Assembly (NCBI RefSeq): GCF_003334355.1
Contig: NZ_QOWP01000042.1
Strand: one strand, 5' to 3'
Source: Escherichia coli
Lineage (GTDB): Bacteria; Pseudomonadota; Gammaproteobacteria; Enterobacterales; Enterobacteriaceae
DNA: 27,357 nt
Position numbers: made by a program. Shown here one piece after another: positions 23,301-27,357 of the stretch. Every line of letters starts with the position of its first letter. Position 1 is the stretch's first letter.

Positions 23301-26300
23301 GACCGTTATGCACGGCATGAGCCGCCGCCACACGCGTAAAACGATCGCCCAGACCACCGACCATCCCACCACCAGCAATAATAGCATCCACCACATCGCA
23401 AAATGATTGCGTTAACTGCTGATTTTGCTGATCGGCAAGTGCCTGTTCGCTACTGTTTAACAAGACGTCGCGAATGGCCTGCGCATTATTGATCCCCAGC
23501 CGCACGGTTAGCGGCAACGTTTCTGGTTGCGGAGCCAGCACCACCGCTTCATACCATTTCGCCAGCGTGTCACCGATCCCCGCCAGCAGATATTGTTGCG
23601 GTGCATTGAGGATAATCTCCGGTTCCACAAGCACCATAAAATTGGCGTCGTCGAAAATCTCATAATGCAGCGCCTGTCCGGCATCGTTATACCAGACGGA
23701 GAGCGGTGTCCAGGCTGCGCAGGTGGCGGCGATCGTCGGAGCGGCAACAAATGGCAGACCGAGACGGCGGGCGAGGGCTTTCGCGGTGTCGAGCAGTGCG
23801 CCGCCGCCGACGCCAATCACCACGCTGCGATCGTCACCGGACTCAGCCGCCAGTTGCTGTACATCGCTTTCGCTGCAATGACCACGAAACAAAATATGCT
23901 TTGCCCCTGGAAGTCCAAACGCTGGCGGAAGTTTGGTTTGCGCCGCAGCAATGGCGCGTTTGCCGTAGATCCACACCGCGCGAGAAAGTTGTTCATCAGT
24001 GAAAAAATCGTTCAGGTGATTGAAACTTCCTGGATGTGAAAAGTAGTTAGCCGGGCCGACGACCACGCGGATAGGATTGTGAGGCATGTTGTGTTGTCCT
24101 TATTGTTTTATTTAGACATCTAAACGTCTTGATTGCCAAATACTAGCATCGTGTTATAGTGCCTTCAACACGCAACTTCGTCAGGTACAATAAAAATGAC
24201 AAATAACCCTCTGATTCCACAAAGCAAACTTCCACAACTTGGCACCACTATTTTCACCCAGATGAGCGCGCTGGCGCAGCAACACCAGGCGATTAACCTG
24301 TCGCAAGGCTTTCCTGATTTTGATGGTCCGCGCTATTTACAGGAGCGGCTGGCGCACCACGTTGCACAGGGGGCAAACCAATACGCGCCCATGACCGGCG
24401 TGCAGGCCTTGCGCGAGGCGATTGCTCAGAAAACGGAACGTTTGTATGGCTATCAACCAGATGCCGATAGCGATATCACCGTAACGGCAGGGGCGACGGA
24501 AGCGTTATACGCGGCGATTACCGCACTGGTGCGCAATGGCGATGAAGTGATTTGTTTTGATCCCAGCTATGACAGTTACGCCCCCGCCATCGCGCTTTCT
24601 GGGGGAATAGTGAAGCGTATGGCACTGCAACCACCGCATTTTCGCGTTGACTGGCAGGAATTTGCCGCATTATTAAGCGAGCGCACCAGACTGGTGATCC
24701 TCAACACTCCGCATAACCCCAGTGCAACTGTCTGGCAGCAGGCTGATTTCGCCGCTTTGTGGCAGGCGATCGCCGGGCACGAGATTTTTGTCATTAGCGA
24801 TGAAGTCTACGAGCACATCAACTTTTCACAACAGGGCCATGCCAGTGTGCTGGCGCATCCGCAGCTGCGTGAGCGGGCAGTGGCGGTTTCTTCATTTGGC
24901 AAGACCTATCATATGACCGGCTGGAAAGTGGGTTATTGTGTTGCGCCAGCGCCCATCAGCGCCGAAATTCGCAAGGTACATCAGTATCTGACCTTTTCGG
25001 TGAATACCCCGGCACAGCTGGCGCTTGCTGATATGCTACGTGCAGAACCTGAGCATTATCTTGCGTTACCGGACTTTTATCGCCAGAAGCGCGATATTCT
25101 GGTGAATGCTTTAAATGAAAGCCGGCTGGAGATTTTACCGTGTGAAGGTACATACTTTTTGCTGGTGGATTACAGCGCGGTTTCTACCCTGGATGATGTT
25201 GAGTTTTGCCAGTGGCTGACGCAGGAGCACGGCGTAGCGGCGATTCCGCTGTCGGTGTTTTGCGCCGATCCCTTCCCACATAAACTGATTCGTCTCTGTT
25301 TTGCCAAGAAGGAATCGACGTTGCTGGCAGCAGCTGAACGCCTGCGCCAGCTTTAGCTATTTAACCGTCCAGGCGCGGGAATATTGACGGTCGGCAAACA
25401 ACTCTTGCAGGCCGTTAATTTGCTTCAGGCGCAGCACTTCGTCGCTGTCCATTCCCAGCTCTTTGCCAATTTTATTATCGTCCCATCCCAACTGGCTAAG
25501 TTCACGGACGATTTCCGACATGGCGGTGATTTGATGGCGTCCACGAGCGCGATTATGACGAATAGTCGCGGCGATGCGTTGATTACGCGTACCTTCCAGA
25601 CAGGTCACCGGCAAATAACCTTTTAAGCGTAATTTTAATGATGATGAGCCTTTACCAATTTCATGGCGGTGAAAACCATCCACGATTTCCATGGCATTTT
25701 TATCCGTATGTGTGACCACAATGGGTTGGGTAAAACCATCTATTTCAATGGATTTTTGCAGCAGTTTTTTTTCGGGTGGTGCCACGTTGTTTGGGTTGTA
25801 ATCATTAGGCATAAGTTGGCTGTTTTTAACCCACAGAACGCAATCCACTGGCTCTTCACGAAAGGGGCTAACCTGATGGATCGCCATGCGGATTTCATTA
25901 ATCGCTTTGATGCGATCATCTTCCGGCAAGCTGGCGAGAAATTGCGTTAAATCCTGCGTTAATCGTTGTTGCATAGTATCCCCCATTCCTGACGTTTTCC
26001 TTTTATCCGTTCGTTATAACGCTGATAGTTCTTCGATTTTGTGGGGCTAAATGATAATGCCCGACACCAGTAATCGTTATTGAGTAAAACTTTGCATATC
26101 CGCCGCCAGGAGGGGATATCTTTCGCGCCAATGTCCCCTTGCTGGGTTTGTGGAACCTCGATGCCTTTTTTCTGATACCAGTGCAAATAAATGGCGATTT
26201 TATTGCGGTAATGCTCAGCTGTTTTTTCCGGCATGCTATTGAGCAGCAATAATGCATATTCTTGCCAGTCTAAATGTTCTGGCTTGAGGATTTTCCGATG

Positions 26301-27357
26301 CCCATAGAAATGATTGTCATGTCCGGCGTAAATGCCGCCACTTTTTACCCCGCTGACTCGTGCGCACATAGCAGCCCAGCGATCCGGTTCGATAACGTGA
26401 TAGAGCCATAATCCTTGTCGTTGCTCCGGGCCAAAAGGTTCGCAAATTCGCATATGACGCAGAGGAACGCCTGCCTGATACATTAGGTTATACAGTGGGT
26501 TGCAGAGACTTTGATGATTTGCATACCAGGTCCAGATATCAGCCACTTTCCAGTCGTAAATGGGGTAAATGTACCAGCTATGACCGCCTGGTGCGGCCGT
26601 AGTCCAGGGTTTATCGTCGGCAAAACGTTGTTTATTTAAACTGGCGATGGCGACAAAACGGTTGTAGGACTCATCCGCACGGATGCCGATCATCATCGCC
26701 GCCGGACGTTTTTGTGAAAACCATTCGGCAAACTCACGTACAAATTGTTCGAAGGTCATGCCTGGCTGGTAAAAGGAGAAAAAGTCAGGGTCGGTTATCG
26801 CATCTTGGAGAGGTTGACGTACCCATTCGACATCAGGTTCCCAGCACTGCCATTCGGGTTGGTATTGTGAAAGGGAATTTTGCGTCGTAAGCGGGAGCGC
26901 AACCCAGTAAAACTCTTCGATGACATCGGTGTACAACTCGCGCAGGGACTGAACATAGTTAATGGTGCAAGAGAATTGCGCCTCCCAGTCGATAAACAAA
27001 ACGCAGATTTTTTTGCCCATTTGTCGGGCAAGTTCGGCTGTCAGATGCAGCATTAAACCAGAGTCTTTGCCGCCAGAAAATGAGACACAAACGCGGGGTA
27101 GGGTATTGAGTGTCCAGGTAATACGCTCTCGTGCAGCTTCCAGAATATTGAGCGGAAGAGGAATTTTATAAATAGACGGTGATGCTGCCAACTTACTGAT
27201 TTAGTGTATGATGGTGTTTTTGAGGTGCTCCAGTGGCTTCTGTTTCTATCAGCTGTCCCTCCTGTTCAGCTACTGACGGGGTGGTGCGTAACGGCAAAAG
27301 CACTGCCGGACATCAGCGCTATCTCTGCTCTCACTGCCGTAAAACATGGCAACTGCA

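Follow-up and report, generated by a model that had tools for sequence, protein, structure and literature searches.

The ybdN–ybdM gene pair considered here lies near the end of a stretch of Escherichia coli DNA, hereafter the window, which is one whole draft contig of 27,357 bp (QOWP01000042.1 of assembly GCA_003334355.1) and ends within a copy of the insertion sequence IS1. Over about 6.5 kb, window positions 20611..27177 align with positions 630000..636567 of E. coli K-12 MG1655 at 98.55% identity, and the aligned K-12 region comprises cstA–ybdD–hcxA–ybdL–ybdM–ybdN. The operon at this locus, ybdN–ybdM, has already been catalogued and belongs to the core genome of E. coli, the pair being present in 5399 of 5426 E. 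coli genomes. Both genes are on the minus strand. The coding sequence of ybdM (25357..25986) specifies a protein of 209 amino acids with a ParB N-domain and a helix-turn-helix (HTH), identical to K-12 YbdM (b0601), while that of ybdN, without the first two bases of its ATG, occupies 25959..27177 (codons 2-406 and the stop codon) and specifies a PP-loop domain of the 3'-phosphoadenosine 5'-phosphosulfate (PAPS) reductase fold followed by DUF3440. The end of ybdN and the start of ybdM overlap by 28 nt (25959..25986, minus strand), an arrangement also found in the annotation of K-12 and of the plasmid and island paralogues.

In K-12, ybdN opens with ATG TCT ATT, encodes 406 amino acids and has an AT-rich spacer and citR upstream. 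In the window, the homology to K-12 ends at 27177, which is the G of the native ybdN ATG, and positions 27178..27357 (plus strand) are the left end of IS1, with the terminal inverted repeat beginning at 27178 and insA running from about 27233 off the contig end. This segment shares 99.5% identity with IS1A of E. coli W21; it carries the IS1 terminal inverted repeat GGTGATGCTGCCAACTTACTGAT followed by insA, which contains Zn_ribbon_InsA and points away from ybdN, and the same sequence is annotated as IS1 transposase in the matching genomes. IS1 is inserted in the ybdN start codon of the window strain. An earlier note, made from the sequence alone, had delimited the gene pair as 25357-27191 with a ybdN start at 27191. 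Its ybdM reading frame, the 28-nt overlap and the positions of the SGGKDS and DGFHR motifs agree with the sequence, and the ybdM frame also with the identity to K-12 YbdM, but the insertion had been missed: the 14 bases at 27178..27191 (TTG GCA GCA TCA CC on the minus strand) are in-frame codons derived from IS1. Because the TTG at 27191 sits in the IS1 terminal repeat, the open reading frame (ORF) of 410 amino acids that starts there is an IS1–ybdN chimera and not the native gene, and inspection of the sequence before this TTG found no Shine-Dalgarno motif at a usable distance. As the contig ends inside IS1, the second junction and the target duplication are not visible; the 9-bp duplication expected at the junction is GTCTATTTA. 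IS1 is also met near ybdN in other strains: 201 of 5426 complete E. coli genomes have an IS1 end no farther than about 600 bp from the 5' end of the gene, with at least seven different IS1–ybdN spacings among the 15 matches listed. In E. coli W21 citR is split by IS1, and in TUM9868 the element occupies the spacer between citR and ybdN, some 125 bp ahead of ybdN and in the same orientation as in the window strain. The citR–ybdN region has a GC content of 34%, and IS1 may recur there either because the AT-rich sequence is a hot spot or because escape from control by CitR is selected.

In YbdN, a PP-loop ATP pyrophosphatase domain with the PAPS-reductase/CysD/FAD-synthase fold is joined to a family-specific helical domain, DUF3440. 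Pfam assigns residues 29-233 to PAPS_reduct (7e-14) and recognizes DUF3440 as well (5e-23). An AlphaFold2 model built on 71 diverse relatives reached a predicted local distance difference test (pLDDT) score of 91.7 and a predicted template-modelling (pTM) score of 0.89, with adenosine 5'-phosphosulfate (APS)/PAPS reductases and CysD as its top structural neighbours, and the SGGKDS motif read on the sequence (residues 35-40; 27060..27077, minus strand), together with a fold matching PP-loop enzymes, places the protein in this class. The C-terminal half, the 170-residue helical DUF3440, matched no structural neighbour. G36, K37 and S39 of the PP-loop, as well as D63 and E65, are invariant in the 71 diverse members, and the motifs GxRxxESxxR and DW...DxW are invariant or almost so. 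Among 77 sequences there is no conserved cysteine column; C246, which lies in RICEPFG at a CysH-like position, is cysteine in 34 of the 77 and alanine in 29. An invariant PP-loop without a conserved cysteine argues that the conserved chemistry is that of an ATP pyrophosphatase (adenylation) and not thiol- or Fe-S-dependent sulfur transfer. Every match to a curated NCBIfam model falls far below its cut-off, with 35 bits against 254 (TIGR02057) and 34 against 154 (NF002537) for PAPS/APS reductase (CysH), 25 against 195 for CysD and 22 against 290 for DndC (TIGR03183); the PHROG family of YbdN is phrog_2302. Apart from the insertion, ybdN of the window strain shows little sign of decay: its protein differs from that of K-12 only by P124L and C134S, although the first change replaces a proline found in 87% of family members. 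All E. coli YbdN sequences examined, K-12 included, also deviate from the family consensus in having C226 where 95% of the family have tyrosine and N231 where 88% have aspartate (residues 124, 226 and 231 lie at about 26820, 26514 and 26499, minus strand).

YbdM is a short ParB-fold protein with an N-domain of the nucleotide-binding type, in which DGFHR stands for GERR, and an HTH. The Pfam ParB_N match is weak (3e-4), this domain being found in 26 of 42 family members, and the PHROG match is to phrog_2159 (4e-69). The matches listed for YbdM itself were all near-identical enterobacterial proteins. The family profile, compared with the PDB, matched Noc (6.8e-7) and ParB, pairing NDYNPN of YbdM with the ParB box NxxQPR, DGxTQPIVV with hGhhQPIVV and VDGFHR with IAGERR, which binds cytidine triphosphate (CTP); weaker matches were to SbnI and SerK, kinases of the ParB/Srx fold. 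For the YbdM part of a medium-confidence model, Foldseek returned Noc, ParB and KorB with probability 1.0 over the N-domain and the HTH. The latter covers approximately residues 156-190 (25417..25521, minus strand; LGMDSDEVLRLKQ), as judged from conservation, model helices and the Foldseek alignment with the HTH of Noc and KorB. The chain ends about 20 residues past the HTH and therefore lacks a C-terminal dimerisation domain. The GERRxR CTP-binding motif is absent from YbdM; at the position aligned with GERR of ParB and Noc it has DGFHR (residues 103-107; 25666..25680, minus strand), whose D, G and R never vary in the family and whose H is conserved to 98%. The most conserved motif of the family, RHNRARG (residues 143-149; 25540..25560, minus strand), is 100% conserved in 62 sequences and nearly or fully invariant in a second alignment, and NxYNPNxVAPPE, VDGFHR, TIRHNRARGxH and LGMxxDExLRLKQ are 98-100% conserved from Enterobacteria to Bacteroidota, Firmicutes and a contig of a Heimdallarchaeota metagenome-assembled genome (MAG). 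YbdM thus resembles the CTP-dependent clamps ParB, Noc, KorB and VirB in the fold of the N-domain and HTH and in the N-domain boxes that can be aligned, but differs from them in DGFHR, in the missing dimerisation domain and in RHNRARGxH, which is invariant and specific to the YbdM family. The start of ybdM may instead be the second ATG (25974), which has GGGGGA 5 nt upstream and gives 205 amino acids, the length of the Citrobacter orthologues; the overlap with ybdN would then shrink to 16 nt, as in the plasmid and island paralogues.

Beyond E. coli, genes of the YbdN and YbdM families almost always go together, as a two-gene module that is found in bacteria, on plasmids, in phages and in the archaeal (Heimdallarchaeota) MAG. 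At E<=1e-30, 207 clusters of YbdN-like proteins (50%-identity representatives) were found, and 224 GenBank phage records contain a YbdN relative, from phages of Flavobacterium, Mycobacterium, Streptococcus, Arthrobacter and others. The neighbourhood survey comprised the 80 best loci among a one-genome-per-species set and the 80 best viral loci from IMG/VR (160 in total), the latter retrieved with the family alignment in place of a single-protein query, which had found one close relative only; a YbdM-family gene was counted as paired when it lay <=1.5 kb from the YbdN homologue on the same strand. By this measure all 80 genome loci, spread over many phyla, are paired, with the YbdM-family gene downstream in 79, and so are 74 of the 80 viral loci (47 downstream, 27 upstream), three of the six unpaired viral loci being at contig ends. 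Many viral contigs have a gene for a protein of about 130 amino acids between a YbdM-like gene and the YbdN-like gene that follows (L129 6539..7684; L118 1991..2362); this small protein has the motif SCEHxLTN...NRxAxLGQAA and no PHROG match, and some contigs encode it as a C-terminal fusion to the YbdM homologue. No natural YbdN–ParB fusion was found among the long members of the YbdN family, which have GNAT fusions or low-complexity tails instead.

The recurrent neighbour clusters in the 160 loci are limited to a SNF2-like helicase, a GNAT acyltransferase, an unknown protein of 380 amino acids and replication genes. The helicase is compact (about 400-480 amino acids; Pfam SNF2-rel_dom and Helicase_C; phrog_62) and lies <=2.5 kb away at 20 of the 80 genome loci and 13 of the 80 viral ones, and it also accompanies the pair in Lactobacillus, Streptococcus, Fusobacterium and Flavobacterium phages. 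The acyltransferase (about 140 amino acids; Pfam Acetyltransf_1, 2.3e-5) was found at 21 of the 80 genome loci and 3 of the 80 viral ones; its gene precedes that of the YbdN homologue in Bacteroidota and separates the two genes of the pair in Ralstonia, Sphingomonas and a Paenibacillus plasmid. A GNAT-like domain is moreover fused to the YbdN homologue in Dyella sedimenti (L034 7862..9745) and in protein P0179, which as Rosetta-stone evidence suggests that the acyltransferase works with the PP-loop enzyme. The viral neighbours include DnaB-like and other helicases, RecE-like and Cas4-type exonucleases, NinG and replication initiators. In mycobacteriophage Bernardo (gp4-gp5-gp6; L006 73..4474) the pair stands directly upstream of the large terminase and in Flavobacterium phage FCL-2 (L005 4145..9085) directly upstream of the portal gene; the role as a small terminase that these positions suggested was rejected as a general account, since at most viral loci the pair is surrounded by genes for replication and recombination.

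Within the enterobacteria, ybdNM is a chromosomal relative of IbrA/IbrB, as indicated by domain architecture, gene order and database names: a protein with PAPS_reduct and DUF3440 is followed on the same strand by an overlapping gene for an IbrB-like ParB protein, and the NCBI name of YbdM is 'IbrB-like domain-containing protein'. Citing papers describe IbrA/IbrB of E. coli ECOR-9 as co-activators of the prophage eib genes, and a SEED subsystem bears their name. An accessory pair about 58% identical to YbdN/YbdM is present in 2133 of 5426 complete E. coli genomes (39%), a single genome having as many as four copies, and IncF and Klebsiella virulence plasmids carry it too. On the IncF plasmid it lies beside F4-like (fae) fimbriae and an EAL gene, on the Klebsiella virulence plasmids between the fec and iro loci, and on an O157:H7 island together with genes for PerC and the autotransporter Cah. 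On a Ralstonia megaplasmid (L091 4840..11256) the pair directly follows an adhesin gene reported as RadA, and in a Ralstonia rprR mutant IbrAB, an EAL protein, a GNAT protein and RadA are up-regulated together. Record OR845499, presumed to be a 'phage' record of O157 ibrA, proved to be a ybdN-ybdM-ybdL fragment of another enterobacterium. YbdNM shares with IbrA/IbrB both families, their order and the overlap, but it is the core-genome copy beside citR, is normally repressed (PMC9068703) and has no recorded eib-type phenotype. In K-12, CitR (YbdO) has been shown by ChIP-exo (chromatin immunoprecipitation with exonuclease digestion) and RNA-seq to bind upstream of ybdNM and to repress the operon (PMC9068703), work that the earlier note had overlooked. 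The literature search found no biochemistry of YbdN or YbdM and nothing functional beyond regulation by CitR.

Taken together, these observations are best explained, at somewhat better than even odds (about 0.55), by a core operon ybdNM that is disrupted by IS1 in the window strain and whose intact form is a DNA-directed modification or processing system. The near-obligate pairing, the invariant PP-loop without a cysteine, DGFHR in place of GERR, the SNF2 and GNAT partners and the replication context in viruses all point to a nucleotide-dependent activity on DNA, and our best guess from these sequence features is a nucleotide-dependent module acting on DNA and possibly modifying it. In such a module, YbdM would bind DNA through its HTH, and its nucleotide pocket of the ParB/Srx type would recruit or gate YbdN, which would spend ATP, release pyrophosphate and adenylate a target on or at the DNA, be it a base, the backbone or a DNA-bound protein. 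In enterobacteria the visible outcome would be the switching on of genes gained by horizontal transfer, as IbrAB is reported to do with eib. The nearest functional precedent is DpdA/DpdB, in which the ParB-like ATPase DpdB is required by the DNA-modifying enzyme DpdA and SNF2-type helicases are part of the same system (PMC12839542), although YbdN is a PP-loop enzyme and not a transglycosylase, and no queuosine-precursor genes are linked to the pair. Fusobacterium phage phiFN37 has a YbdN/YbdM-like pair with its SNF2 helicase and, at a distance of 3 kb (L004 10748..12033), a second, DpdB/DpdA-like pair of a ParB-like protein and a queuine tRNA-ribosyltransferase, accompanied by a queuosine-precursor transporter. 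Several points weigh against a DNA-modifying module. That DNA is the substrate of YbdN is something we infer, and the only phenotype reported for the family, as given in citing papers, is transcriptional activation (IbrAB, eib). The AlphaFold2 model of a fused YbdN-(GGGGS)4-YbdM, with 16 paired rows, reached a pTM of only 0.53 and a pLDDT of 75.6 and yielded no confident complex. The plasmid and island pairs adjoin fae fimbriae, RadA, Cah/PerC and iro, a setting that a plain regulator fits equally well, and the chromosomal E. coli copy of YbdN may have drifted in function, given its deviations at C226 and N231.

The main rival is that the pair is purely a transcription factor or anti-silencer, in which YbdM/IbrB would bind DNA like VirB or KorB and relieve the silencing of acquired genes by H-NS, and YbdN/IbrA would be a mere nucleotide-dependent cofactor or chaperone, with no covalent modification involved. 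The IbrAB phenotype and the adhesin-adjacent contexts favour anti-silencing: the co-activation of prophage eib genes described for IbrAB in citing papers, the plasmid and island settings in which the pair has adhesin and virulence loci as neighbours, and the co-regulation of IbrAB with the adhesin RadA in Ralstonia. The architecture of YbdM, an N-domain and an HTH as in Noc, ParB and KorB, suits the same idea, as does the AT-rich citR–ybdN region, which has been reported to be H-NS regulated (PMC9068703). A catalytically complete PP-loop that is invariant across phyla is, however, hard to explain for a scaffold, the GERR motif and dimerisation domain of ParB-type clamps are absent, and the viral pairs stand in replication and recombination modules together with SNF2 and GNAT enzyme partners. 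On balance a pure regulator appears rather unlikely.

A separate question is what remains of the operon in the window strain. With IS1 in the start codon, ybdN is parted from its native ATG, ribosome-binding site and promoter and from the upstream region bound by CitR, and most likely full-length YbdN is not made or is made poorly from the TTG carried by IS1; judging from the sequence of the junction, the operon is probably dead or rewired. A consensus scan identified a hybrid promoter-like site at 27163..27191 (minus strand; 10/12), composed of a -35 element TTGGCA in the IS1 repeat, a 17-nt spacer and a -10 element TAAAAT in ybdN codons 4-6. Transcription from this site would start downstream of the TTG, and the next in-frame AUG (M44) is past the PP-loop, so that full-length YbdN is probably absent. 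The predicted hybrid IS1/ybdN promoter could nevertheless drive ybdM, and a truncated ybdN, independently of CitR. The opposite view is that the operon still works, IS1 supplying both outward transcription and the TTG, and that a YbdN of 410 amino acids is made free of CitR repression. The chimeric ORF is indeed in frame across the junction (MAASP in place of M) and could be translated from the TTG given read-out transcription from IS1, there is a promoter-like -35 within the IS1 end, the recurrence of IS1 in citR or the citR–ybdN spacer of other E. coli might mean that de-repression is selected, and the other IS1 junction lies outside the contig; these points weigh against simple inactivation. 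They are countered by the predicted start of transcription past the TTG, by the lack of a Shine-Dalgarno motif before it and by the transcription of insA in the opposite direction, which makes a functional operon in this strain rather improbable. Elsewhere in the window, 38 bp at 975..1012 are identical to K-12 632112..632149, between cstA and ybdD, and are probably a REP-type intergenic repeat.

Anti-phage defence, or a counter-defence system borne by phages, has also to be considered, as the pair is carried on mobile elements, its SNF2-like partner resembles ZorD, DpdE and DrmD at the domain level, and among the clusters listed in a preprint is one of PAPS-reductase effectors that has ParB-domain proteins and stands next to a nucleoid-protein sensor. 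We consider it improbable: no single system model of PADLOC v2 matches both YbdN and YbdM, the pair belongs to the core gene set of E. coli, no recurrent nuclease or toxin effector was found in the surveyed loci, and the abundance of the family in lytic phage genomes argues for a function that benefits the phage and not for host defence. The earlier note had proposed a functionally coupled PP-loop and ParB-like pair akin to IbrA/IbrB and to DndC/DndB. Most of this has held up, in that the hidden Markov model searches recovered PAPS_reduct and ParB_N, structural neighbours and the profile and Foldseek matches to Noc and ParB agree with them, the pair is conserved as a unit, and the link to IbrA/IbrB fits both the NCBI name and the accessory pair; the DndC/DndB link has not. 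A stripped-down system of Dnd-like DNA phosphorothioation, with YbdN as DndC and YbdM as DndB, would account for the pairing of a PAPS-reductase-clan PP-loop ATP pyrophosphatase with a ParB/Srx protein, for the DGxHR motif, which resembles DGQHR, and for weak DndC matches (NCBIfam 5.5e-5; PADLOC 2e-5, over a partial stretch only). Yet the DndC score of YbdN is an order of magnitude below the cut-off, YbdN has no conserved cysteines for an Fe-S cluster, dyad or persulfide relay and carries the C-terminal DUF3440 that sets it apart from DndC, and YbdM matches no DndB model of NCBIfam or PADLOC at E<=0.01. Neither the cysteine desulfurase DndA nor DndD, DndE or DndFGH, nor any methyltransferase or restriction nuclease, recurs beside the pair at the 160 loci, where the recurrent partners are the SNF2-like helicase and GNAT instead of sulfur, restriction or Dnd genes, and DndA, DndD and DndE are absent from the window, so that this explanation is very improbable. 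Least credible of all is the automatic product name, which makes YbdN a genuine PAPS/APS reductase or a subunit of ATP sulfurylase: the Pfam domain, the top structural neighbours and the shifts of cys regulon genes in a citR mutant table (PMC9068703) speak for it, but the CysH and CysD scores miss their cut-offs widely, the family does not conserve the C-terminal catalytic cysteine (ECGLH-type), for which C246 is the only candidate, and, in contrast to CysH, APS reductase, CysD and eukaryotic FAD synthase, YbdN has no conserved catalytic cysteine but has the additional DUF3440 and an obligate DNA-binding partner in a family abundant in phages and plasmids. The module is most probably neither a sulfate-assimilation system nor a Dnd-type phosphorothioation system.

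A wider and frankly speculative picture, doubtful as a whole, is that YbdN/YbdM (IbrA/IbrB) are the core of an undescribed pathway of DNA modification or processing that is borne mainly by phages and plasmids. In such a pathway, a nucleotide-binding HTH protein of the ParB/Srx fold could direct a cysteine-independent, adenylating PP-loop enzyme to DNA, and a SNF2 translocase, or a GNAT enzyme supplying an acyl or aminoacyl group, could serve as an optional third component. The chromosomal and island copies of enterobacteria could be domesticated versions, whose mark could switch on silenced, horizontally acquired genes. For the window itself the result is mostly corrective, as the 'gene' that had been delimited there is an IS1–ybdN chimera. 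More is at stake in the chemistry of the family than in the disrupted copy: nearly every E. coli keeps the ybdNM pair, which has relatives in hundreds of phages, in virulence plasmids and in a Heimdallarchaeota MAG, and the survey points to mutants and phages worth testing.

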